From Candidatus Avoscillospira stercoripullorum (GTDB taxonomy: Bacteria; Bacillota; Clostridia; Oscillospirales; Oscillospiraceae): a stretch of DNA of 38,374 bases. The notes below the pieces were generated by a model. The model was not told where the DNA came from, searched no databases, and was given only the letters and a program-made list of their open reading frames with translations. The first letter of the stretch is position 1. Each line of letters opens with the position of its first letter. This document shows, piece by piece, positions 25,493 through 38,154 of this stretch. The stretch covers positions 1 to 38,374 of the forward strand of contig DVGD01000076.1 of the NCBI GenBank assembly GCA_018712905.1. The letters run 5' to 3'. The position numbers were made by a program, and so were the translations under genes.

Positions 25493-26726
25493 GGTTGTCG
25501 TCCTGGGCGGCGGCGCGGCCGGCATGATGGCGGCCGGCGCTGCGGCGGAGGCCGGGGCGAAGGTCATCTTGGTGGAGCAGAACGACCGGCTGGGAAAAAA
25601 GTTGGCCATCACCGGCAAGGGAAGATGCAATGTCACCAACTGCTGCTCGGCGGAGGAAGTGCTCAAGAATATCCCGCGCAACGCCCGGTTTCTCTATAGC
25701 GCCCTGGATGCCTTTTCGCCGGAGCAGGCAATGGCCTTTTTTGAGGCGCACGGATGTCCCCTCAAGGTGGAGCGCGGAAACCGCGTGTTTCCCATATCGG
25801 ACAAGTCCGCCAGCGTCATTGGCGCGCTGGAGCAGTACTTACGCAGCGGCGGCGTGGAAGTTTTCCGCGGAAAGGCCATAAAGCTTCTCACCCAGGAAGG
25901 AACGGTCTGCGGCGTGGAGACCAGCCGCGGCACGATTTCTGCCAGCCGCGTGATATTGGCAACCGGCGGCCGCTCCTACCCCCTGACGGGCTCCGACGGC
26001 AGCGGCTATGGGCTGGCGCAGGAGGTGGGGCACACCATCGTGCCCACCTGGGGCTCACTGGTGCCGCTGGAGGAGGATGGCGATTACTGTGCCAGGCTCC
26101 AGGGGCTTTCCCTTCGAAACTGCGCCATCAAGGTGAAAAATCAGGCGGGGAAGACCATTTACCAGGACTTCGGGGAGCTGCTCTTTACCCATTTCGGGCT
26201 GTCCGGCCCCGTGATTCTCAGTGCCAGCGCCCATGGAAAGCCCGGCGATCTTCATACTGTTTTCATCGATCTCAAGCCGGCGCTGGATGAGCAGAAGCTG
26301 GACCTTCGAATTCTGCGTGACTTTGAACAATATCAAAACCGCACCATTGAGCATGCCTTGCAGGATCTCTACCCCAGGCTGCTGATCCCGGTGATGGTGG
26401 AGCGCGCCGGCATCCCGCCGGAGACCCGCGCCAACTCTGTGACCCGTGCCCAGCGCCGCAGGCTTTTGGAGCTTACCAAGGCATTCCCAGTGAAAATCCG
26501 CGGCCGCCGTCCGGTGGAGGAGGCTATCATCACCGCAGGCGGTGTGTCGGTGCGGGAGGTCAATCCCAAAACCATGGAATCCAAGCTGGTGCATGGGCTC
26601 TATCTGGCGGGAGAAATCCTGGATGTTGACGGCTATACAGGGGGATTTAATTTGCAGATCGCCTGGGCGACCGGCCGCGCTGCCGGACTGGCGGCGGCAA
26701 GGAAAGAAGAGGAGGAGCGTCCATGA
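25473..26726 (+). CDS. NAD(P)/FAD-dependent oxidoreductase, HI0933/BaiN-like flavoprotein
   Basis: It has a Rossmann motif VVVLGGGAAGMMAA plus GKKLAITGKGRCNVTN and a C-terminal LYLAGEILDVDGYTGGFNLQ. The start is ATG 25473 or 25464, overlapping the rpiR-like 3' end. Confidence 0.85.
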   Translation: MNGLRHKVVVLGGGAAGMMAAGAAAEAGAKVILVEQNDRLGKKLAITGKGRCNVTNCCSAEEVLKNIPRNARFLYSALDAFSPEQAMAFFEAHGCPLKVERGNRVFPISDKSASVIGALEQYLRSGGVEVFRGKAIKLLTQEGTVCGVETSRGTISASRVILATGGRSYPLTGSDGSGYGLAQEVGHTIVPTWGSLVPLEEDGDYCARLQGLSLRNCAIKVKNQAGKTIYQDFGELLFTHFGLSGPVILSASAHGKPGDLHTVFIDLKPALDEQKLDLRILRDFEQYQNRTIEHALQDLYPRLLIPVMVERAGIPPETRANSVTRAQRRRLLELTKAFPVKIRGRRPVEEAIITAGGVSVREVNPKTMESKLVHGLYLAGEILDVDGYTGGFNLQIAWATGRAAGLAAARKEEEERP

Positions 26727-27403
26727 ACACGTTTGTATCCATTGCCATCGATGGCCCCGCAGGGGCTGGAAAGAGCACTATGGCGCGGATGCTGGCAGAC
26801 CGGCTGGGGTATTCCTATGTGGACACCGGGGCAATCTACCGCACCATCGGCCTATTCTTGAGCATTTGCGGCATCAGCCCCAAGGATGTGGATGGGATCA
26901 CCAGGCTCATTGACGAGGCGTCCATCCAGGTGGAGTACGACGAGCAGGGAATGCAGCATATGCTGCTCAATGGCCAGGACGTCACCGGTGAGCTGCGCAC
27001 GCCGGAGATGAGCGACTATGCCTCCAAGATTTCCGCGCTGAAGGTGGTGCGGGATGTGCTTTTGGATTTGCAGCGGGATCTCGCTGGGACGCGAAACGTG
27101 GTCATGGACGGCCGGGACATCGGCACGGTGGTGCTGCCCCGCGCCAATGTGAAGATCTTCCTCACCGCCTCGCCGGAGGTGCGGGCAAAGCGGCGGCTTT
27201 TGGAGCTGCAGGCAAAAGGCGACAAAAAGTCGAGCTTTGATAAGGTGCTCCAGGAGATCCGCGAGCGGGACAAGCGCGATGAAACGCGGGCGGTGGCGCC
27301 GCTCAAATGTGCGCCTGACGCTGTCCGGCTGGATACCTCCGAGCTTAGCATCGAGGAGAGCGCCGCCGCCATGGAAAAAATCGTGAAAGAGAGGCTAGGG
27401 TAA
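26723..27403 (+). CDS. cmk: Cytidylate kinase
   Basis: IAIDGPAGAGKST P-loop and DTGAIYR motifs. The product is 226 aa. Confidence 0.94.
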   Translation: MNTFVSIAIDGPAGAGKSTMARMLADRLGYSYVDTGAIYRTIGLFLSICGISPKDVDGITRLIDEASIQVEYDEQGMQHMLLNGQDVTGELRTPEMSDYASKISALKVVRDVLLDLQRDLAGTRNVVMDGRDIGTVVLPRANVKIFLTASPEVRAKRRLLELQAKGDKKSSFDKVLQEIRERDKRDETRAVAPLKCAPDAVRLDTSELSIEESAAAMEKIVKERLG

Positions 27404-28005
27404 TGCTGCACGGCGCCATTTACTACTTCCTTTATGTGGCCTGCCGCTTCGGCCTTTTCTTCTATCACCCCATTTTTCGCGTAATTGGCCGGGAAAATGT
27501 GCCCAAGGAAGGGCGGCTGATGATCTGCGCCAACCACAGCGGTCTCGCGGATCCCATCTGGATCATCATGGCGCTGAAGATGGGACATATGCCCCGGGTC
27601 ATGGCCAAGAAAGAGGCATTTGACGTTCCGATCCTGGGCTGGTTTCTCCGCAGCATCGGCGTTTTTGGCATCGACCGGGAGGGGATGGACATCGGCGGCA
27701 TCAAAACCGGCATCAAGTGCCTCAGGGAGAACCAGCAGCTGATGGTATTCCCGGAGGGTACCCGGGTACGGCCTGGAAAGGTGGTCAAGCCCAAAAAGGG
27801 CGCCCTGCTTCTGGCGGCCAGAACAGATGCGCCGGTGCTTCCCGTCTATCTCACGGTGAAGCGGCATCCCTTCAGCAAGCTCACCTGCGTCATCGGAAAG
27901 CCGTACCACCCTGCCTACGGCAGCAAGAAGCCCACGGAGGAGGAGCTGGAGACGGCCACCCAGGAGCTGATGGAGAAGATCTACCGCTTGGGGGAGACGG
28001 CATGA
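27403..28005 (+). CDS. plsC: 1-acyl-sn-glycerol-3-phosphate acyltransferase
   Basis: NHSGLADP (HxxxxD) and FPEGTR acyltransferase motifs. The product is 200 aa. Confidence 0.88.
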   Translation: MLHGAIYYFLYVACRFGLFFYHPIFRVIGRENVPKEGRLMICANHSGLADPIWIIMALKMGHMPRVMAKKEAFDVPILGWFLRSIGVFGIDREGMDIGGIKTGIKCLRENQQLMVFPEGTRVRPGKVVKPKKGALLLAARTDAPVLPVYLTVKRHPFSKLTCVIGKPYHPAYGSKKPTEEELETATQELMEKIYRLGETA

Positions 28006-29954
28006 AGGTCATATTGGCCAAGACGGCCGGATTTTGCTTTGGTGTGGATCGTGCGGTATCCCTAGTGGAAGAAGCCGTGGCGCAGGGAAAACAGGTGGCA
28101 ACCCTGGGACCCATCATTCACAACCGCCATGTGACGGCGCATTTTGCTGAGAAAGGCGTGCGGGAGCTCCAGGAGCCCGAGGAGGCGCAGCCGGGGAGCG
28201 TGGTGGTGATTCGCTCCCATGGGATCTCCCGTGCCGTCTATGAGCGTCTCCAGGTACAGGATGTGGAGATTGTCGATGCCACGTGTCCCTTTGTCAAGCG
28301 AATCCATAAAATTGTGCTGCGGGCGGAGGAGCAGGGGCGACTGCCGGTGATTATCGGCACCAAGAGCCATCCCGAGGTGCAGGCCATCGCCGGCTGGTGC
28401 AAGCATCCGCTGGTCTTCGAAACACCGGAGGAGCTGTCGAGCTGGCTGCAAGAGGATCCTGCACGCTGCCATTTGCCCCTCACCATGGTCTCTCAGACCA
28501 CCAGCACACAGAATTTATGGGAAAGATGCAGGAAAATTATAAAAAAAGAGTGTACAAACGGCGAAATATTTGATACAATATGCGAAGCAACAGAAAATAG
28601 GCAGAAGGAAGCAAACGAGCTGTCACAAAGCTGCGATGCGATGGTTGTCATAGGCGATTCCATGAGCTCCAACACCAAGCGGCTTGCCATGATCTGTGGG
28701 CAACATTGCAAGGATGTTGTACTGGTGGAAGATGCCTGTGGGCTGGACGTATCGCATTTTTCGTCTGCGCGGTCTGTTGGTATCACGGCGGGGGCGTCCA
28801 CTCCGGCGTGGATAATAAAGGAGGTCAACAACATAATGAGCGAAGAAATCAAGGTTGAAACTGCCCAGGAGGAAGACTTTGCCGAGCTTCTCGAGCAGTC
28901 TATCAAGACTTTAAATAACGGAGATAAGGTCACAGGCATTGTAACTGCCATTGGCGCCACCGAGATTCAGGTGGACCTGGGTACAAAGCACGCAGGTTAT
29001 ATCCCTGTTGATGATTTCAGCTCCGATCCTTCCGTGAAGCCGGAAGATGTTCTGAAAGTCGGCGACGAGATTGAGGTGCTGGTGGTGCACGTCAATGATT
29101 CCGAGGGTACGGCGCGTCTTTCCAAGAAGCGTCTGGAAGCCGGCAAGGCTTGGGAAGAGATTGAGGCCGCTGCGGAGAGCAAGGCCGTTGTTGAGGGTCT
29201 CATTACCGAGGAGAACAAGGGCGGCATCGTGGCCAATGTCAAGGGCGTCCGTGTGTTCATCCCCGCCTCTCAGACTGGTGTGCCCAAGGGCGGCGACCTG
29301 TCTAAGCTGGTGAAGACCACCGTGCAGATGAAGATTACCGAGGTCAACCGTGCCCGCCGCCGTGTGGTCGGCTCCATTCGTGCCGTGACCAACGAGCTGC
29401 GCAAGGCTGCTCAGGAGAAGATCTGGGCTGAGATCGAAGTGGGCAAGAAGTATCATGGCGTTGTCAAGAGCCTCACCTCTTATGGCGCCTTTGTGGACAT
29501 TGGCGGCGTGGACGGCATGGTGCATGTCTCTGAGTTGTCCTGGAACCGCATCAAGAATCCCGCCGAGGTGGTCAAGGTGGGTGACGAGATCGAGGTCTTT
29601 GTCATCTCCTACGATCCCGAGAAGAAGAAGATCTCCCTGGGCTACAAGACCCCCGAGACCAACCCCTGGAACATTTTCCTGAACCAGTACAAGGTTGGCG
29701 ATGTGGCCAAGGTGAAGATCGTCAAGCTGATGACCTTCGGCGCCTTTGCTGAGATCATTCCCGGTGTGGACGGCCTGATCCATATTTCTCAGATTGCCGA
29801 TCGCCGCATCGGCAAGCCCGAGGATGTGCTCTCTGAGGGTCAGGAAGTGGATGCCAAGATCATCGACATCGACGCCGAGAACAAGCGCATCAGCCTCTCC
29901 ATCCGCGCGCTGCTCACCGCAGCGGAGGACGAAGCTCCCGCTGTCGAGGAATAA
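28002..29954 (+). CDS. ispH: Bifunctional 4-hydroxy-3-methylbut-2-enyl diphosphate reductase (IspH) / ribosomal protein S1-domain fusion
   Basis: ATG at 28002 forms an ATGA overlap with the plsC stop; the track start at 27717 lies inside plsC. The N-terminal ~280 aa are IspH-like (AKTAGFCFGVDRAV, DATCPFV, VSQTT, SSNTKRL). The C-terminal half carries four S1 repeats (GDKVTG, VEGLI, GKKYHGVVKSLTSYGAFVDIGGVDGMVHVSE, GDVAKVKIVKLMTFGAFAEI). Confidence 0.92.
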   Translation: MKVILAKTAGFCFGVDRAVSLVEEAVAQGKQVATLGPIIHNRHVTAHFAEKGVRELQEPEEAQPGSVVVIRSHGISRAVYERLQVQDVEIVDATCPFVKRIHKIVLRAEEQGRLPVIIGTKSHPEVQAIAGWCKHPLVFETPEELSSWLQEDPARCHLPLTMVSQTTSTQNLWERCRKIIKKECTNGEIFDTICEATENRQKEANELSQSCDAMVVIGDSMSSNTKRLAMICGQHCKDVVLVEDACGLDVSHFSSARSVGITAGASTPAWIIKEVNNIMSEEIKVETAQEEDFAELLEQSIKTLNNGDKVTGIVTAIGATEIQVDLGTKHAGYIPVDDFSSDPSVKPEDVLKVGDEIEVLVVHVNDSEGTARLSKKRLEAGKAWEEIEAAAESKAVVEGLITEENKGGIVANVKGVRVFIPASQTGVPKGGDLSKLVKTTVQMKITEVNRARRRVVGSIRAVTNELRKAAQEKIWAEIEVGKKYHGVVKSLTSYGAFVDIGGVDGMVHVSELSWNRIKNPAEVVKVGDEIEVFVISYDPEKKKISLGYKTPETNPWNIFLNQYKVGDVAKVKIVKLMTFGAFAEIIPGVDGLIHISQIADRRIGKPEDVLSEGQEVDAKIIDIDAENKRISLSIRALLTAAEDEAPAVEE

Positions 29955-29964
29955 TCGATCTCAT

Positions 29965-29996
29965 AGCCCCCGGTCATGATGACTGGGGGCTTTTTT
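29965..29996 (+). terminator. Rho-independent terminator after ispH-S1
   Basis: AGCCCCCGGTCA / TGACTGGGGGCT stem (one G-U pair) followed by TTTTTT. Confidence 0.85.
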
Positions 29997-30028
29997 GCGC
30001 CCATACCCCATAGAAAGAAGGTTTTGAG

Positions 30029-30928
30029 ATGGAATCTGCTGCCATACAGGAGATACTTCAAACAATGACCTGCCCCTTTTCCCCGGCACAGGCGTCGCTG
30101 ACACAGCTTGTCCATGAGGAGGACGGCGCGCCCTACCAGGTATATCGGATTGAGGCGGATGGTAAGCACTATATTCTGAAACAGGCCAAGGAATACGAGG
30201 CGGAGGTCTACCAAAAGCTCCTCAAGGACGCGGGCAGCTGCGTTCCCAAGATCTACGCCACGGCTGAGGCGGCGGGCGAGACGTACCTTCTGATGGAATA
30301 TATCCCAGGGGGAGACCTGCGCAACTGCACCAGGCATGCTCTGATTTTGGCGCTGGACGCCCTCATCGCCCTGCAAAAGAGTTACTGGAACAGCGATTCT
30401 ACCGTGGGCTACACCTATGAAGAGAGCCTTGTCCACCGCAAAAAGCGGGGCACATACCTCTGCGACCCTCAGCTGGAACAGGCCTATGAGATCTTTCTCA
30501 AAGACTATGCATCGCTTCCGCGCACCCTCTGCCACGATGATCTCTTGCCCTTTAACGTGCTGTTTGCCGGAGAGCGTGCGGTGTTCATCGACTGGGAGTT
30601 TGCCGGGATCCTGCCCTATCCCACTTCCTTTGCCCGGCTCATTGCCCATGGGGAGGAGGACGAGAACGCATTCTTCCATATGACTGCCGCCGACCGGGAA
30701 TTTGCCATTGACTATTACTATGAAAAGCTCCTGGCGGAACAGGGGATATCCTACAGAGCATGGCGCGAAGCCCTCTTGTCATTTCTCCTGTACGAGGCCT
30801 GCGAATGGGTGATGATCGGAAACAAATACGGCGAGAAGGACAGTCCGTACTTTCAAAAGTATCTTCCCATGGCCAAGCACCTGGCGGAGGAGATGCAAAA
30901 GCGCACAGCGGGAGCACCTTGTGAATGA
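30029..30928 (+). CDS. Aminoglycoside/choline-kinase-like phosphotransferase (APH family) protein
   Basis: 299-aa ORF with kinase-fold motifs: HYILK (beta3 Lys), LCHDDLLPFNVL (HxDxxxxN catalytic loop) and FIDWEFAG (metal-binding Asp). Confidence 0.8.
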   Translation: MESAAIQEILQTMTCPFSPAQASLTQLVHEEDGAPYQVYRIEADGKHYILKQAKEYEAEVYQKLLKDAGSCVPKIYATAEAAGETYLLMEYIPGGDLRNCTRHALILALDALIALQKSYWNSDSTVGYTYEESLVHRKKRGTYLCDPQLEQAYEIFLKDYASLPRTLCHDDLLPFNVLFAGERAVFIDWEFAGILPYPTSFARLIAHGEEDENAFFHMTAADREFAIDYYYEKLLAEQGISYRAWREALLSFLLYEACEWVMIGNKYGEKDSPYFQKYLPMAKHLAEEMQKRTAGAPCE

Positions 30929-30932
30929 CTGC

Positions 30933-30961
30933 TTGTATATTCATGAATAATGTGATATACT
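30933..30961 (+). promoter_or_regulatory. Putative sigma-A promoter (extended -10) for the large ncRNA
   Basis: TTGTAT (30933-30938), a 17-nt spacer, then TGaTATACT (TG at 30953-30954, -10 at 30956-30961). It begins 5 nt after the APH-like stop codon, and no RBS or plausible start follows it. Confidence 0.65.
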
Positions 30962-30967
30962 GTAAAC

Positions 30968-31612
30968 GATAATGGCGCAGTATCCTAGTCAGCGCCACCG
31001 GCTCCCAGGAAGGGCCTAAAAATCCTTTGAAGGGCATAACTGTGAAACCTCTGGTGCTTGCTTCTTACGCCCAGTTTGGGGTGAGTGCTGGAGGAAGGCG
31101 TAACAATTACGCCTGCGGCGGAAGGGCGGTCTTCAATGGCATGAAGATCCCGACCCTGCCGTTGTGGAGACCCACTGTTGTGCAGACGCGTACTCCCCAG
31201 TGGTCGAAGCGACGTCTGTACGAGGTGGGATGTAAACCTGCAATGCGGTGCAAGGGCTTGCCCGAGCGCTGTGTGCAGAGTAGCCTGCCTTGCGTGAGCA
31301 GATCGGGACTGCGGTCAGGCATGCAGACCCCTGGCCAGGGGCGAGGCATGATATTGCCGCACGAAAGCCTGCTTGCAAAAGAGGATAAGAGTCGGAGGGC
31401 GCTGTGGTGGAAATCACCTAGGCTGTCTTTCATAGAGCAGATAAGGGATTGCAGTACGGACTCAGTGGCAATCGGGTCGCTTTCTTGGCAACGGAAAGAC
31501 GGCGGCTTTCATGGGAAACCACTCCACCGGCGACGGGGAGCAGCCTCCGGGGAAATCCTACCCGACCTAAGCCGTAAGCTTAATCTTATCTGCTGCCATT
31601 ATTCTTGAGAAT
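30968..31612 (+). ncRNA. ole: Large structured non-coding RNA, candidate OLE (ornate, large, extremophilic) RNA
   Basis: About 645 nt between the predicted promoter and the RBS of the next gene. Only mutually overlapping, RBS-less, R/C/W/G-rich ORFs occur here, on both strands. There are many short GC hairpins: TGGCGC/GCGCCA 30973-30997, GGCGTA-acaat-TACGCC 31097-31113, CCACTG/CAGTGG 31172-31203, CCCGA/TCGGG 31261-31307, CCCCT-GGCC-AGGGG 31328-31341, GGTG-gaaat-CACC 31406-31418, TGG-GAAA-CCA 31512-31521 and GGAG-cagc-CTCC 31537-31548. The downstream synteny (4-TM protein, dxs, tlyA, nadK, argR, recN) matches the known OLE/oapA locus. Boundaries are approximate, and the family was not verified by a covariance model. 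Confidence 0.7.
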
Positions 31613-31624
31613 TGAGGGAGTATC

Positions 31625-32224
31625 TTGCAGCAAAACCAGGGGAAAAAGTCCAAAAAGCTGAAAATCAAGCCGGACTGGCACTGGATCACCACGATCTTTG
31701 GCACGACCATCGGCATCTCCGCCGCCATGTCCTTTCTCTCCAATGAGATGTTGTCCGGCGGCGGCCTTATATTATCCTTTGCCGTTCTCCTGGTCATTAT
31801 CTTGATCGGTATTCTCTTTGATATTATCGGCGTGTCGGTGACGGCTGCGGAGGAAAAGCCCTTTCACTCCATGGCCGCAAAAAAAGTGCCCGAGGCCAGA
31901 GAAGCGCTGAAAATGCTGCGCCGTGCCGAGCGGGTTTCCTCCTTCTGCAACGACGTGGTGGGCGACATCTGCGGCGTCATCTCCGGTTCTGCCGCCGCCG
32001 TCATCGCCGCAAAGGCCATCACCGGCATGAGCCCTGTGTTGGGGAGCGTGGTGCAGCTCCTGCTGTCCGCCGTGGTGGCCGGGCTCACCGTGGGCGGAAA
32101 GGCGTTTGGAAAGTCCATCGCCATGAATAACAGCACGGCCATAATTCATGCGGCGGCGAAAGTGATGTATCTCGTAAAATCTCTGCCCGGCCGTGTGACG
32201 CGCCGGAAGGGGGACAGGGGATAG
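31625..32224 (+). CDS. oapA: Four-helix integral membrane protein, candidate OLE-associated protein A (OapA)
   Basis: TTG start follows a GAGGGAG RBS at 31614-31620. The 199-aa product has a basic N-terminus (KKSKKLKIK) and four predicted TM helices (ITTIFGTTIGISAAMSFL, LILSFAVLLVIILIGILFDIIGV, FCNDVVGDICGVISGSAAAVIAA, VVQLLLSAVVAGLTVGG). It lies between the ncRNA and dxs. Confidence 0.7.
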   Translation: MQQNQGKKSKKLKIKPDWHWITTIFGTTIGISAAMSFLSNEMLSGGGLILSFAVLLVIILIGILFDIIGVSVTAAEEKPFHSMAAKKVPEAREALKMLRRAERVSSFCNDVVGDICGVISGSAAAVIAAKAITGMSPVLGSVVQLLLSAVVAGLTVGGKAFGKSIAMNNSTAIIHAAAKVMYLVKSLPGRVTRRKGDRG

Positions 32225-32233
32225 GAGCCAGCT

Positions 32234-34081
32234 ATGTTACTCAATGAAATCCACACCCGGGCGGATTTACTTCGCCTGACGCCCCAGGAAAATCAGCAGC
32301 TCTGCGGAGAGATTCGCGAATTCCTGGTGCGGCACATCGCCAGAACCGGCGGCCACCTGGCCTCCAATCTGGGCGTGGTGGAGCTGACCGTTGCCCTGCA
32401 TCAGGTCTATGATACGGAGAAGGACAGAATTCTCTTTGATGTGGGGCATCAGTCCTATGTCCATAAGATTCTCACCGGGAGAATGGATCGGTTTTCCACC
32501 CTGCGCACCTATGGCGGCCTGGCTGGCTTTCCCAAGCCCTCAGAGAGCGTGCACGACGCGTTTATTGCCGGACATGCCTCGGAGTCGGTTTCCGTGGCGC
32601 TGGGCATGGCGCGGGCGAGAACCCTGCTCCACGAGGATTACAGCGTGGTGGCGGTTCTGGGCGATGGGGCGCTGACGGGAGGTCTTGCCTACGAAGGACT
32701 CAACGACGCCGGCGCCAGCGGAGAGCCGCTTGTGGTGGTGCTCAATGATAACGGCATGTCCATCACCACCAACGTGGGCGCCATTTCCCGGCACCTGAAG
32801 CTCTTGCGGCTCAAGCCCGGCTATTTTGATCTGAAAAAGGCATACCGGCAGTTCACCCGGAAAATTCCCGGCGGTGCGGCGCTCTACCGCTTTACCCATG
32901 GACTCAAGACCAGGCTGCGCCGCCGCTTGATTGGCGTGACGATTTTTGAGGAGATGGGATTTTCATATCTTGGCCCCGTGGACGGCCATGATGTGGAGAA
33001 GCTCAAATTCCTCCTCAAGGAGGCCAAGGGGATGAACTGCCCGGTTCTCCTCCATGTTATCACCAAGAAGGGGAAGGGCTATATTCCCGCGGAGGTCACG
33101 CCGTCCAAGTATCACGGCGTGGGGCGCTTTAATCCGGTCACCGGTCTCAGCGCCGGGGGCAGTGGGAAGAGCTTCTCAGAAACCTTTGGCCAGACGCTTT
33201 GCGACCTTGCCATCGAGGATCAGCGAATTTGCGCCATTACGGCTGCCATGGAGCAGGGGACGGGACTATCCCAATTTGCTGCCAGCTTCCATGATCGATA
33301 TTTCGATGTGGGCATTGCCGAAGGGCATGCCGTTTCCATGGCGGCAGGGCTTGCCAAGCAGGGACTGCTGCCGGTCTTTGCCGTGTATTCTACGTTCTTG
33401 CAGCGAAGCTACGACATGCTCCAGCAGGACGTGGGGCTTCTAGGGCTTCATGTGGTGCTGGCGGTGGATCGCGCCGGATTGGTGGGTGAGGACGGCGAAA
33501 CCCACCATGGCGTCTTTGACGTGGGGTATCTGCGCCAGATCCCGGGCATGACGGTGTTCTGCCCGGCCAGCCAGGCGGAGCTTCGCCGGATGCTCCGGGA
33601 GGCCATTTTGGAGACAAGCGGCCCCGTGGCGGTGCGCTATCCCCGCGGCGGAAACGGCGCCTACGATGGCGCGGTGTGGGAAAATCAGTGCTGCGACGCG
33701 CCTGCTGTGACCATTGTCACCTATGGTATCACCATCAACGATGTTTTGGCGACCGTCAAGCGGCTGCGGGACGAGCATATTTCCGTGGATCTCATCAAGC
33801 TCGATCAGATTGCGCCCCTTCACTTGGAGCCCGTCCGGCAATCCCTCGCGCACAGCGGAAAGCTCCTGGTGGTAGAAGAAACTGCTGCTGCCGGATGCGT
33901 GGGCAGCGCGATTCTCGCCCAGCTGGTGCAAGAGGGTGCTGCACCCAATGCAGTGCGGCTTATCAACCTCCAGTCCGGCTTGGTGCCCCACGGAAGCCTC
34001 CCCCTGCTGCGCCATCGTACCGGCTTGGATGAAGCGGGGATTTATCAAGCGACAAAGGAGTTGATTGGCCTTGAAGCATAA
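32234..34081 (+). CDS. dxs: 1-deoxy-D-xylulose-5-phosphate synthase
   Basis: 615-aa ORF with GGHLASNLGVVELTVALH, GHQSYVHKILTGR and the TPP-binding motif GDGALTGG. Confidence 0.96.
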   Translation: MLLNEIHTRADLLRLTPQENQQLCGEIREFLVRHIARTGGHLASNLGVVELTVALHQVYDTEKDRILFDVGHQSYVHKILTGRMDRFSTLRTYGGLAGFPKPSESVHDAFIAGHASESVSVALGMARARTLLHEDYSVVAVLGDGALTGGLAYEGLNDAGASGEPLVVVLNDNGMSITTNVGAISRHLKLLRLKPGYFDLKKAYRQFTRKIPGGAALYRFTHGLKTRLRRRLIGVTIFEEMGFSYLGPVDGHDVEKLKFLLKEAKGMNCPVLLHVITKKGKGYIPAEVTPSKYHGVGRFNPVTGLSAGGSGKSFSETFGQTLCDLAIEDQRICAITAAMEQGTGLSQFAASFHDRYFDVGIAEGHAVSMAAGLAKQGLLPVFAVYSTFLQRSYDMLQQDVGLLGLHVVLAVDRAGLVGEDGETHHGVFDVGYLRQIPGMTVFCPASQAELRRMLREAILETSGPVAVRYPRGGNGAYDGAVWENQCCDAPAVTIVTYGITINDVLATVKRLRDEHISVDLIKLDQIAPLHLEPVRQSLAHSGKLLVVEETAAAGCVGSAILAQLVQEGAAPNAVRLINLQSGLVPHGSLPLLRHRTGLDEAGIYQATKELIGLEA

Positions 34082-34877
34082 GGAACGGCTGGATGTGCTT
34101 CTGGTGGAGCGCGGCCTTTCGGAGAGCCGCACCAAGGCACAGGCCGTCATCATGAGCGGCGAGGTCTATGTGGACGGGCAGAAGGCAGATAAGCCCGGCG
34201 CGTCCTATGACCTGGAGGCCAAGATTGAAGTGCGCGGCAGCGTCTGCCCGTATGTGAGCCGCGGCGGGCTCAAGCTCGAAAAGGCGCTGCGGGACTTCGG
34301 CGTGGATCCCACGGGCTATGTTTGCAGCGACTCCGGCGCCTCCACCGGCGGCTTTACCGACTGCCTGCTGCAGCAGGGCGCCAGGAAGGTCTTTGCCATT
34401 GATGTGGGCTACGGCCAGCTGGCCTGGAAAATCCGCAACGATCCCCGGGTGGTGACCATGGAGCGCACCAACATCCGCTATGTCACCCACGAGCAGCTGG
34501 GCGAGCCGCTGGATCTCTCGGTGGTGGATGTTTCGTTTATTTCCCTCAAGCTGGTGCTCCCGGCCATCCGGGCGCTGCTCAAGCCCGATTGCGGCCAGGT
34601 ACTCTGCCTCATCAAGCCGCAGTTTGAGGCGGGCAAGGATCGCGTGGGCAAGAAGGGCGTGGTGCGCGACCCGGAAGTACATCGAGAGGTTCTGGAGCAG
34701 TTTGTGGAGACGGCCAAGGCGCTTTCCTTTACCATTTTGAATCTCACCTTCTCGCCGGTCAAGGGACCCGAGGGGAACATCGAGTTTTTGGGTCACCTGA
34801 GCCTGCGACCCGGGATCGACAACATTCCGCCCCTGGAGGAATTGGTCTCCCAGGCGCATGAAGCATTGAAGGGGTGA
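34065..34877 (+). CDS. tlyA: TlyA family rRNA (cytidine-2'-O)-methyltransferase
   Basis: It has an S4-like N-terminus (RLDVLLVERGLSESRTKAQ) plus VSRGGLKLEKAL, GASTGGFTDCLLQ and DVGYGQL. The start is TTG 34065 or 34071, after AAAGGAG. Confidence 0.9.
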   Translation: MALKHKERLDVLLVERGLSESRTKAQAVIMSGEVYVDGQKADKPGASYDLEAKIEVRGSVCPYVSRGGLKLEKALRDFGVDPTGYVCSDSGASTGGFTDCLLQQGARKVFAIDVGYGQLAWKIRNDPRVVTMERTNIRYVTHEQLGEPLDLSVVDVSFISLKLVLPAIRALLKPDCGQVLCLIKPQFEAGKDRVGKKGVVRDPEVHREVLEQFVETAKALSFTILNLTFSPVKGPEGNIEFLGHLSLRPGIDNIPPLEELVSQAHEALKG

Positions 34878-34880
34878 GCC

Positions 34881-35741
34881 ATGAAAATTGTAATGACTCC
34901 CAATCCCTACCGGGATCGAAATTTCAAGTACGTGGAGCAGGCGGTGGAAATCCTCCAGAAGGCAGGCGCCGAGACCAAGATCTGCCTGCCCTTCGACGTG
35001 GACAAGAATTTTGAGCTGCCCAAAACGGTGCGGTTTTTTGACATTCATCGGGAAATCAAGAATGCGGATCTGCTCATCTGCTTTGGCGGGGACGGCACCA
35101 TTCTCCATGCCTCCAAGATTGCCACCCGTCACCATGTGCCCATTCTCGGCGTCAACATCGGCACCATGGGCTTTATGGCGGAGCTGGAGGCCGGGGAGCT
35201 GGAGCTCCTCTCCCGGCTCCCTGCCAACGACTACCGGGTGGAAAAGCGCATGATGCTCCGCGCCACGGTGCGCAGTGAGGGAAAGGTGCTCTTTGACGAG
35301 CTGGCGCTCAACGACGCCGCTATTACCAAGGGCGCCATTGCCCGGGTGATTCAGCTGTCGGTGGAGTGCGACGGCGTGGAGGCCACGGCCTTCTCCGGCG
35401 ACGGCGTCATTGTCAGCACACCCACCGGCTCCACGGCCTACTCCATGTCTGCCGGCGGCCCCATTGTGGAGCCCTCGGCGCAGAATATCATCATCACCCC
35501 CATCTGCGCCCATGCCATCCATGCCAAGAGCATCGTCACCGCGCCCTGGCGCACCATCACCGTGCGGATGGGAAAGCTGGGGCGGCGCAATGCCTTCCTC
35601 TCAGTGGACGGCGGCCGCGCCTTCCGCCTCAACGTGGGCGACGCGGTGACCATTCGCAAGGCCGAGCAGGAGACGCGGCTGGTGAGGCTGAAGGATACCA
35701 GCTTTTACCAGATCATCAACAATAAATTTTACGTCCCATAA
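34881..35741 (+). CDS. nadK: NAD kinase
   Basis: GGDGTILHA, NDAAI and GDGVIVSTPTGSTAYSMSAGGPIV motifs. The product is 286 aa. Confidence 0.95.
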   Translation: MKIVMTPNPYRDRNFKYVEQAVEILQKAGAETKICLPFDVDKNFELPKTVRFFDIHREIKNADLLICFGGDGTILHASKIATRHHVPILGVNIGTMGFMAELEAGELELLSRLPANDYRVEKRMMLRATVRSEGKVLFDELALNDAAITKGAIARVIQLSVECDGVEATAFSGDGVIVSTPTGSTAYSMSAGGPIVEPSAQNIIITPICAHAIHAKSIVTAPWRTITVRMGKLGRRNAFLSVDGGRAFRLNVGDAVTIRKAEQETRLVRLKDTSFYQIINNKFYVP

Positions 35742-35752
35742 GGAGCTGTGCC

Positions 35753-36205
35753 ATGAAACCCAACAGACAGGCGAAAATTTTGGAATTGATTGAAACCAAG
35801 GACATTGAAACCCAAGAGCAGCTCCTGCAGGAGCTGGAGGCCTGCGGCTTTGCCACCACCCAGGCGACGATCTCCCGCGATATCAAGGAGCTTCGCATCA
35901 TCAAGGAACTGGGGGAGAACGGCAGCTACCGCTACAGCGCCGTGCCCAAGCAGCTCGAGAGCAACGCAACGGCCAAGCTCCACAACATCTTCCGCCAGTG
36001 CGTGGTTTCCTGCGACTATGCCCAGAATATCGTCGTGATGAAGACCATGCCTGGGCTCGCCTCGGCAGCCTGCTCTGCCATGGATTCCATGAATATGGAC
36101 ATGATCGTGGGCACCCTGGCCGGGGATGACACGGCATTTCTCCTCCTGCGGGACACGCCCTCGGCGGCGGCCTTGTGCGCGGACATCAAAAAGCAGATCA
36201 ACTGA
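35753..36205 (+). CDS. argR: Arginine repressor
   Basis: 150-aa ORF with a winged-helix N-terminus (RQAKILELIETKDIETQEQLLQELEACGFATTQATISRDIKEL) and a C-terminal GTLAGDDT motif. Confidence 0.94.
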   Translation: MKPNRQAKILELIETKDIETQEQLLQELEACGFATTQATISRDIKELRIIKELGENGSYRYSAVPKQLESNATAKLHNIFRQCVVSCDYAQNIVVMKTMPGLASAACSAMDSMNMDMIVGTLAGDDTAFLLLRDTPSAAALCADIKKQIN

Positions 36206-36223: not shown

Positions 36224-37876
36224 ATGCTTAGCTTACTCCATATCGAGAATATCGCCGTGATCGAGCAGGCGGAAATCAGCTTTGACCGGGGCTTCAACGT
36301 CCTCACCGGCGAGACCGGTGCAGGCAAGTCCATTGTCATCGACGCCATCTCCGCCATTCTCGGCGAGCGAACATACCGGGATGTGATCCGCACCGGCACA
36401 GACCGCGCCTTTGTGAGCGCCGTTTTTACTGACGTGCCGGAGTTACCTTGGTTTGCGGAAAACCGGGTGCCCTACGCGCCGGAGGAGCTGCTCATCCAGC
36501 GGGAAATCTACGGCGATGGAAAGAACGTTTGCCGGGTGAACGGGCGGCCTGTCACCGTGGCGCTTCTCAAAAAGCTGGGGGCGTCCCTCATCAACATCCA
36601 TGGCCAGCACGATTCCCAGCAGCTCTTTGACGAGACAAAGCACCTGGGTTACCTCGACCTCTTCGCCCGCAACCAGGCTGAGCAGGCGGCCTATCAGGAG
36701 GCCTATGGCCGCGTGGAGGCGCTGCGCAGGGAGAAGGAGCGCCTGACCATGGACGATGGAGAAAAGCTCCGCAGGGTGGAGGCGCTTCAATTCCAGCTGG
36801 AGGAGATTCAGCGCGCCCAGCTCCAGCCCGGGGAGGATGAAGCGCTGGAGCAAAGCCGCAAACGGCTCCAGAACGCGGAAAAGCTCTCCGAGCACTTGGC
36901 GCTGGCCGTGGCTGCCCTCTCCGGCGGCGAGGAGGAATCGGGCGCGGTGGATCTTTTGGGGGAGGCGGAGCACGCCATCTCCCGGATCACGCGCTTTGAC
37001 GACGCGCTCCAGCCCTTCTGTGAGCGGTTATCAGCGCTCCAATATGAGGCGCAGGATCTCTCCGGGGAGCTTCGCGACCGGCTGGAGCAGCTGGCCTATT
37101 CCGGGGAAGAGCTCGAGCAGATTGAAAGCCGATTGGATGTGCTCCACCGGCTCAAGCGGAAATATGGCGGCAGCGTGGAGGACATTCTCCAGTATGCCCA
37201 GCGCGCCCAGCAGGAGCTCGACGAGATTACCTTCTCTGAGGAGCGCCTGGCGCAGCTCGAAGCGGATCTTGGCGAGGCGACCGCCCAGGCCGAGGCGGCG
37301 GGGCTTACCCTGCGGAAGACGCGCCAGGCGGCTGCTGCGGCCATGGAGCAGCGGCTTTCGAAGGAGCTGGCTGCTCTGGATATGCCCCGGGCGCAGTTTG
37401 TCTGCGAGCTGGAGGAGATTCCGCTCTCTCCCTCCGGCATGGATCAGCTGCGGTTTTTGATGACGGCCAACGTGGGCGAAGCCCTCAAGCCCTTGAGCAA
37501 GGTGGCCTCCGGCGGCGAGCTGGCGCGGATCATGCTGGCTATCAAGAATGTGCTGGCCGAGCAGGATCAGGTGGGCACGCTGATTTTTGACGAGGTGGAC
37601 GCCGGCGTCAGCGGCCGCGCCGCCCAGAAGGTGGCGGAGAAGCTTCGAAGCGTCTCCCGCAGCAAGCAAGTGCTCTGCGTCACGCACCTTCCCCAGATTG
37701 CCGCAGCGGCGGATGTGCACCTGCTCATCGCCAAAACCGAGCGACAGGGGAGAACCTATACCCAGGTGACCCGGCTGGATCGGGCTGGAAGAACCAGAGA
37801 GATTGCCCGGATCATCGGCGGCGCGGAGATCACGGAGACCACCCTGCGCAGCGCCGAGGAGATGCTTTCCGGTTGA
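36224..37876 (+). CDS. recN: DNA repair protein RecN
   Basis: 550-aa ORF with LLHIENIAVIE, Walker A GETGAGKSI, a coiled-coil middle region, the SMC signature ASGGELARIMLAIK and Walker B LIFDEVDAG. Confidence 0.95.
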   Translation: MLSLLHIENIAVIEQAEISFDRGFNVLTGETGAGKSIVIDAISAILGERTYRDVIRTGTDRAFVSAVFTDVPELPWFAENRVPYAPEELLIQREIYGDGKNVCRVNGRPVTVALLKKLGASLINIHGQHDSQQLFDETKHLGYLDLFARNQAEQAAYQEAYGRVEALRREKERLTMDDGEKLRRVEALQFQLEEIQRAQLQPGEDEALEQSRKRLQNAEKLSEHLALAVAALSGGEEESGAVDLLGEAEHAISRITRFDDALQPFCERLSALQYEAQDLSGELRDRLEQLAYSGEELEQIESRLDVLHRLKRKYGGSVEDILQYAQRAQQELDEITFSEERLAQLEADLGEATAQAEAAGLTLRKTRQAAAAAMEQRLSKELAALDMPRAQFVCELEEIPLSPSGMDQLRFLMTANVGEALKPLSKVASGGELARIMLAIKNVLAEQDQVGTLIFDEVDAGVSGRAAQKVAEKLRSVSRSKQVLCVTHLPQIAAAADVHLLIAKTERQGRTYTQVTRLDRAGRTREIARIIGGAEITETTLRSAEEMLSG

Positions 37877-37907: not shown

Positions 37908-38154
37908 GTTACAAGCGAGGAAAAGGAAGAGTACGGCAGATCACGCCCTCAAGAGAGCCTCCGGCTGGTGGAAGGAGGCGGACGTCCTGCCCGAATACGC
38001 CTTGGAGCTGCGGCCTGAAGGAGAGTAGGGCTTGCCGGGTTTGCCCGTTACAGCTTGGAGTTTATACTCCCTGAGGCCGCATCCGCGAGGCTGCGGCGAA
38101 CATGAGGTGGTACCGCGAAATTTCGCCCTCTGTCCAAAGGACAGGGGGCTTTTT
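37908..38154 (+). promoter_or_regulatory. T-box riboswitch leader, specifier codon UAC (tyrosine)
   Basis: Stem I has GCGAGGA...GAAGAGTA, the AGAGAG bay, the distal loop GGCTGGTGGAA, and GGCAG/CTGCC closing a specifier loop GAA-TAC-G (TAC at 37996-37998). Further elements are the F-box CCCGTTA, Stem III GCCGCA/TGCGGC and the T-box sequence AGGTGGTACCGCG (38105-38117). The terminator is GCCCTCTGTCC-aaa-GGACAGGGGGC followed by TTTTT (38125-38154). Confidence 0.9.

Follow-up and report, generated by a model that had tools for sequence, protein, structure and literature searches.

The reading frame downstream of an OLE RNA in an Oscillospiraceae-like Clostridia genome is almost certainly oapA

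We show here that the open reading frame at 31625-32224 in the window, that is, in the whole analysed stretch of 38,374 nucleotides from Candidatus Avoscillospira stercoripullorum, is almost certainly oapA, the gene for OLE-associated protein A, in the genome of an Oscillospiraceae-like member of the Clostridia. OapA is known as a small four-helix membrane protein that is encoded right after the OLE (ornate, large, extremophilic) RNA and tethers this RNA to the cell membrane. The original prediction, made from the letters of the DNA, had proposed such a membrane anchor of a ribonucleoprotein (RNP), and the identity is now supported by the adjacency to OLE, by homology to the protein of Halalkalibacterium (Bacillus) halodurans, by a DxxxD motif, by four predicted transmembrane (TM) helices and by a CorB-like predicted fold. 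Each check that had been suggested and could be run gave a positive result, and no finding contradicts the identification as OapA. The OapA reading is already-known biology, and the lineage lies within the published range of OLE (Bacillota, Clostridia).

Results

Homology to the OapA of H. halodurans

OapA of H. halodurans C-125 has reportedly been studied by Block et al. in 2011 and by Harris et al. in 2018/2019. The resemblance to a characterised OapA, which had been proposed, was borne out by the match between the window protein and the H. halodurans protein P0271 (44% identity over 172 aa, E = 4e-48), which is 200 aa and 21.2 kDa in size and bears the source name 'hypothetical protein [Halalkalibacterium halodurans]'. 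The sole DxxxD of P0271 occupies residues 100-104, and the PM1 mutant of H. halodurans OapA is described as D100A/D104A in a '21-kDa transmembrane protein' (PMC9723947). In the alignment, D110 and D114 of the window protein fall column for column on D100 and D104 of P0271, with FDIIG, PFH-MA and LTVGGKA-GK in register. The size had likewise been proposed to resemble that of OapA, and the computed 20.9 kDa agrees with the published 21 kDa (PMC9723947). Moreover, Kretsch et al. modelled OapA with AlphaFold3 and printed its sequence (Nature 2025, Supplementary Table 4). A machine-read copy of this sequence, from which 6 residues were lost, matched the window protein with 43% identity over 171 aa (E = 1e-34) and the family profile with 163.7 bits.

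The family to which the window protein belongs is large. In a word-indexed database we found 7,907 relatives, which form 1,111 clusters at 50% identity and are nearly all 185-215 aa long; the family signal lies far beyond chance. An alignment of 65 diverse members, with 35-48% identity to the window protein, revealed that D66, D110, G113, D114, G121 and K163 are invariant in all 65, with the consensus FCNDVVGDICGIxSG around the DxxxD motif. The NCBIfam search returned no family for the window protein, and since neither Pfam nor NCBIfam holds a curated model for OapA, no library gives it a name. The features of the locus are compiled in Table 1.

Table 1. Coordinates of the oapA locus, of the segments of its product and of the neighbouring genes (positions are those of the window)
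Feature	Position	Strand	Basis or remark
APH-family phosphotransferase	30029..30928	+	upstream of OLE
Promoter-like element TTGTAT, 17-nt spacer, TG-n-TATACT	30933..30961	+	found by eye
OLE RNA, full length	30956..31615	+	Rfam RF01071, 412 bits, E = 8.4e-118; structured core to ~31594
Shine-Dalgarno sequence GAGGGAG of oapA	31609..31615	+	9 nt 5' of TTG; within unstructured 3' tail of OLE match
oapA coding sequence	31625..32224	+	199 codons + stop, TTG start, 44% identity to H. halodurans OapA
Basic N-terminal segment, residues 1-17, net charge ~+5, predicted cytoplasmic	31625..31675	+	
Predicted TM helix 1, residues 18-45	31676..31759	+	AlphaFold2, moderate hydropathy
Predicted TM helix 2, residues 48-74, with invariant D66 (FDIIG)	31766..31846	+	hydropathy, alignment, AlphaFold2
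TM2-TM3 loop, residues 78-103, PFHSMAAKK motif, K86, K87, R92, R99, R103	31856..31933	+	
Predicted TM helix 3, residues 101-131	31925..32017	+	hydropathy, AlphaFold2
DxxxD motif D110-V-V-G-D114, OapA hallmark	31952..31966	+	invariant 65/65
Predicted TM helix 4, residues 137-168, with LTVGGKAxGK	32033..32128	+	alignment, AlphaFold2
Amphipathic C-terminal helix 170-186 and basic tail 187-199	32132..32221	+	AlphaFold2, charge analysis
dxs (1-deoxy-D-xylulose-5-phosphate synthase)	32234..34081	+	TIGR00204, 645 bits; 9 nt past oapA stop
tlyA	34065..34877	+	canonical OLE gene cluster
nadK	34881..35741	+	canonical OLE gene cluster
argR	35753..36205	+	canonical OLE gene cluster
recN	36224..37876	+	canonical OLE gene cluster

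The OLE RNA and its co-occurrence with oapA

The Rfam match to OLE covers model positions 1-616 of 616 and, at 412 bits, compares with a gathering score of 50. It ends at 31615, and oapA begins at 31625 on the same strand. The claim that the ribosome-binding site abuts the RNA is accurate, for the last base pair of OLE lies at about 31594, which places the Shine-Dalgarno sequence within the 3' tail of the Rfam match, where OLE is unstructured. A TTG-initiated ORF of 193 aa (31027-31608, +) is contained wholly within OLE, and the opposite strand carries ORFs of 94-108 aa; these are chance frames of a GC-rich structured RNA, which gene callers could mis-annotate.

The promoter-like element in front of OLE combines a -35 sequence with 3/6 consensus matches (TTGTAT) and an extended -10 sequence with 5/6 (TATACT), which predicts a transcription start at about 30968. 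It was not called in a consensus promoter scan, because the -35 sequence matches at just three positions. As evidence the element is weak, and transcripts reading through from the APH gene upstream are possible too. OLE may have its own promoter in the window, given that the operon genes normally found upstream are missing. Between OLE, oapA and dxs, no convincing terminator was identified in a scan for promoters and terminators, which is consistent with their co-transcription.

Co-occurrence of the protein with OLE was examined in a contig scan with one genome per species, in which we analysed the best 80 of at least 599 loci encoding relatives; these 80 all derive from Oscillospiraceae-like metagenome-assembled genomes (MAGs) and Sporobacter termitidis. 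A full-length OLE RNA was found directly upstream on the same strand in 20/20 loci searched with Rfam, and a profile built from the Rfam matches (nhmmer) extended this to 79 of the 80, the exception (L070) being a contig end without upstream DNA. The RNA also precedes the gene in all four distant relatives (35-39% identity), cut by the contig end in two of them, and in the H. halodurans locus, where OLE scores 538.6 bits and ends 49 nt before oapA. Overall, a same-strand OLE immediately precedes the gene in 84/84 testable loci, whose proteins span 35-72% identity and include that of H. halodurans. In this sample the search ran solely from the protein to the RNA, and Oscillospiraceae-like MAGs dominate. 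Co-occurrence of orthologs with the RNA, which had been suggested as a check, is borne out by this count. The original prediction was to be abandoned if the protein lacked similarity to OapA and its orthologs were not adjacent to a long structured RNA; both the similarity and the adjacency are clearly present.

Reading frame and non-ATG start of oapA

The oapA product has a computed mass of 20.9 kDa and a pI of 10.2 over its 199 aa. The frame had been proposed to start at a TTG with a ribosome-binding site, and it is present as described; upstream it is closed by a stop at 31613, and the TTG at 31625 is the earliest start that this stop permits. The peptides quoted at the time are all found, with GKKSKKLKIK at residues 6-15, KKVPEAREALKMLRRAER at residues 86-103 and RVTRRKGDRG at residues 190-199.

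Could the frame be a chance or mis-started one, in which the TTG is unused and there is either no functional 199-aa protein or a true start at a downstream ATG? TTG is a weak start codon, and the GC-rich region holds many overlapping spurious ORFs including the one within OLE. However, database homologs span residues 1-199 of the window protein at 95-100% identity, strongly conserved motifs are distributed along the whole length, and a good Shine-Dalgarno sequence precedes the TTG. The next in-frame ATG, at 31727, has no Shine-Dalgarno sequence, and starting there would remove half of TM1. A count that is free of assumptions, namely of loci in which no ATG occurs in frame from the upstream stop to TM1, showed that oapA lacks such an ATG in 60/77 related loci, so that in these 60 a TTG or GTG start is obligatory and a non-ATG start is normal for oapA. 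We consider it next to impossible that the frame is spurious or mis-started; this candidate was excluded by the full-length conservation.

The same count for neighbouring genes found no ATG for dxs in 57/81 loci, for tlyA in 20/78 and for nadK in 4/65; the oapA of H. halodurans starts with ATG. The pattern of non-ATG starts may reflect a tuned low translation of the promoter-proximal genes that follow an abundant RNA. In most loci, the ribosome-binding site of oapA lies about 10-25 nt past the 3' end of OLE.

Predicted topology and basic segments

An AlphaFold2 model built with the 65-sequence alignment (mean pLDDT 92.3, pTM 0.83) has long helices at residues 18-45, 48-74, 101-131 and 137-168, together with short loop helices at 78-85 and 89-99 and an amphipathic C-terminal helix at 170-186. 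In the Kyte-Doolittle profile, TM2, TM3 and TM4 are strongly hydrophobic, and TM1 is less so. The four long predicted helices and the hydropathy profile support the four-TM topology that had been proposed. Because of the positive-inside rule, we infer an N-in/C-in orientation, in which the basic N-terminus, the TM2-TM3 loop and the tail would face the cytoplasm.

The basic segments named in the original prediction are present, but residue-by-residue conservation is confined to the loop positions and to K159 and K163. In the 65 members, the fraction of Lys or Arg is 0.80 at K86, 0.95 at K87, 0.68 at R92, 0.83 at R99 and 0.77 at R103, while position 159 is basic in 100% (Lys in 98%) and K163 is invariant. 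At the N-terminus and the tail, net positive charge is what is kept and the sequence itself is variable: the N-terminal net charge has a median of +5 and is at least +3 in 63/65 members, and that of the tail has a median of +3 and is at least +2 in 49/65. A 'conserved cluster of positive charge' has been described for OapA (PMC12265935), and its counterpart in the window protein is the TM2-TM3 loop. That the lysine-rich N-terminus contacts RNA, as had been suggested, is speculation; this segment varies within the family and is far shorter in H. halodurans (MKSLGKSINW).

Relationship to CNNM and CorB proteins

According to the literature, OapA is weakly homologous to CNNM proteins and has a CorB-like predicted fold. 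The window protein agrees with this, as it matches the Pfam CNNM/DUF21 family (PF01595) at E = 1.3e-3 with 18.9 bits, below the gathering score of 28.4. With an E-value limit of 0.01, 42/65 family members match PF01595, the best of them at 1.3e-8, and it is the sole Pfam family that recurs. No CBS, CorC_HlyC or other Pfam domain was detected in the 199-aa protein at E up to 0.01. With the predicted structure, the top six Foldseek matches in the PDB were the membrane domains of MtCorB (7M1T, 7M1U) and CorC (7CFF, 7CFG), with a probability of 1.00, TM-scores of 0.42-0.57 and E = 9e-3 to 0.2; the seventh match had a probability of 0.13. A PDB search with the window sequence yielded noise only (E > 0.5), and the 65-member profile had no matches at E up to 1. 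The CNNM link is therefore carried by the structural matches and by the weak Pfam similarity. Neither of the two found a solved OapA structure for comparison.

These matches bear on a further alternative, namely that the gene encodes an ordinary CNNM/DUF21 Mg2+ exporter, a paralog of MpfA, CorB or CorC that functions independently of RNA and lies beside OLE by chance. The Pfam match of the protein and of 42 of its 65 aligned relatives, the CorB and CorC membrane domains as the best structural matches, and database names such as 'CNNM transmembrane domain-containing protein' or 'CorB' for some relatives all speak for this alternative. However, the Pfam score stays below the gathering score, the protein is just 199 aa long without a CBS pair or CorC_HlyC domain, and at the sequence level the family profile picks up none of the CNNM chains of the PDB. 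In addition, four TM helices are predicted where CorB has three, and the invariant DxxxD is absent from CNNM domains (PMC11332333). Finally, an OLE adjacency in 84/84 testable loci cannot be coincidence. An exporter of this kind is very improbable, and membership in the CNNM family is effectively refuted by the sub-threshold Pfam score, the lack of CBS and CorC domains, the DxxxD motif and the OLE adjacency.

Gene neighbourhood

The gene order in the window is OLE-oapA-dxs-tlyA-nadK-argR-recN, and that in H. halodurans is OLE-oapA-dxs-tlyA-argR-recN. Among the related loci, dxs lies directly downstream on the same strand in 79/81, and tlyA is present in 78/84. Upstream of OLE, xseA-xseB-ispA are found in H. 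halodurans and in the closest long relative (72% identity); in the window, the corresponding region (26723-30928, +) holds cmk, a PlsC-type acyltransferase gene, an ispH(LytB)-rpsA(S1) fusion and an APH-family kinase gene. The ispH-rpsA fusion and the APH kinase are absent from all 84 related loci searched. The upstream rearrangement has its breakpoint at the OLE promoter, and the OLE-oapA-dxs unit is unaffected by it. Like ispA and dxs, ispH is a gene of the isoprenoid pathway.

The ORF of the ispH-rpsA fusion (27717-29954, +) starts at a GTG at 27717, yet its Pfam LYTB match begins at residue 98 (MKVILAKTAGFCFG...). Its first ~96 residues are rich in Pro, Gly and Ala and overlap the preceding acyltransferase gene, for which reason the true start probably lies near 28005. 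Just past recN there is a T-box leader (RF00230, 117.8 bits, 37909-38133, +), which presumably regulates an aminoacyl-tRNA synthetase gene or an amino-acid gene extending past the last position of the window. A tRNA gene (RF00005, 61.6 bits) occupies 1410-1483 on the reverse strand. Homologs of OapC and bS21 were not found within the window; the genes for both normally lie elsewhere in the genome, so that their absence from the window is uninformative.

Discussion

Much of what OapA is expected to do in the window genome can be read from work on H. halodurans. There, OapA binds OLE cooperatively at a ratio of at least 2:1 near P2 and P4a, is required for the localisation of OLE to the membrane, and is needed to tolerate cold, short-chain alcohols, more than 2 mM Mg2+ and poor carbon sources (PMC12265935, PMC11332333, PMC9723947). 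In the same publications, it is suggested that OLE perhaps takes over the part that CBS and CorC domains play in MpfA, and recent cryo-EM-based models propose that OLE spans the bilayer beside OapA (PMC12265935, PMC11332333, PMC9723947). Deletion of OLE alone results in the same phenotype as deletion of oapA in H. halodurans. Furthermore, MpfA anticorrelates with OLE across the Bacillota (PMC11332333), and OapA has come to be seen as a CNNM-like putative divalent-cation transporter module and a tether rather than as a passive anchor (PMC11332333, PMC12265935).

Applied to the window, this suggests the following mechanism. The oapA gene would be transcribed together with the OLE RNA, whose end lies about 10-30 nt upstream, and translation from the TTG would yield an integral membrane protein of 21 kDa that crosses the membrane four times in an N-in/C-in orientation. 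By analogy with H. halodurans, this OapA would dimerise, bind OLE cooperatively with at least two proteins per RNA, and hold the RNA at or in the membrane. Its divergent CNNM/CorB-like membrane domain with the invariant DxxxD would probably serve as a module for transport or sensing of divalent cations of the Mg2+ type, and the OLE RNA would take the place of the regulatory CBS and CorC domains that MpfA and CorB carry in the cytoplasm. RNA binding, dimerisation, membrane localisation, stress and Mg2+ phenotypes and transport are all inferred for the window protein from its H. halodurans counterpart.

The tight and conserved arrangement of OLE and oapA in cis invites the question of whether it is itself functional. 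It is rather unlikely, in our estimate, that the arrangement serves either an SRP-dependent co-translational loading of OLE in cis or a translational autoregulation of oapA. If loading were at work, a nascent OapA inserting co-translationally would possibly drag its own OLE-containing transcript to the membrane. If autoregulation were at work, binding of OapA or folding of OLE would possibly set the ratio of protein to RNA through the translation of oapA. Neither idea was found in the OLE and OapA literature that we examined. Both are compatible with the published observation that, in E. coli, nothing beyond OLE and OapA is required for membrane localisation.

Public names of OapA orthologs in the Bacillaceae are diverse: 'hypothetical protein', 'CNNM transmembrane domain-containing protein', 'Mg2+ and Co2+ transporter CorB' and, despite the absence of a CBS domain, 'CBS domain containing-hemolysin-like protein'. 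Among the Bacillaceae ortholog matches listed, no source uses the name OapA. Given that there is no naming model, that the names are inconsistent and that a spurious 193-aa ORF lies within OLE, the locus should be labelled explicitly as ole-oapA, which is of modest value for annotation. Biologically, the locus represents an intact OLE RNP core in an Oscillospiraceae-like lineage of the Clostridia, and the preservation of the OLE-oapA-dxs unit despite the upstream rearrangement fits the view of OLE and OapA as an inseparable functional pair. It raises no new question beyond those posed by the H. halodurans and Clostridium models.

Two known systems are close enough for comparison. With the CNNM/DUF21 domains of MpfA, CorB and CorC (PF01595), the window protein shares a similar helical membrane fold and a weak sequence similarity, and the literature proposes that the role of OapA overlaps with theirs in Mg2+ homeostasis. 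Unlike these transporters, it scores below the Pfam threshold, is predicted to have four TM helices instead of three, and carries DxxxD; unlike MpfA, CorB and CorC, it has no CBS pair and no CorC_HlyC domain, and its family is always paired with OLE RNA.

The OapA of H. halodurans C-125 (Fernando & Breaker 2024, PMC11332333; Breaker lab 2025, PMC12265935) is the other. In both genomes, oapA directly follows ole and precedes dxs, all on one strand, and the two products are similar in size (199 versus 200 aa, 20.9 versus 21.2 kDa for the window and the reference). They have in common the motifs FDIIG, PFH-MA, FCNDV-GDI-G--SG and LTVGGKA-GK, the aspartate pair (D110/D114 versus D100/D104), four predicted TM helices, a basic, presumably cytoplasmic loop and a CorB-like predicted fold. 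In contrast, the N-terminus of the window protein is longer and lysine-rich, with 17 versus about 8 residues before TM1, and its tail is rich in Arg whereas that of the reference is rich in Lys. The window gene starts with TTG and the H. halodurans gene with ATG, and the gap between the OLE match and the start measures 9 versus about 49 nt. The surroundings differ as well, with ispH-rpsA and an APH-type kinase gene upstream in the window in place of xseA-xseB-ispA, and with nadK placed between tlyA and argR.
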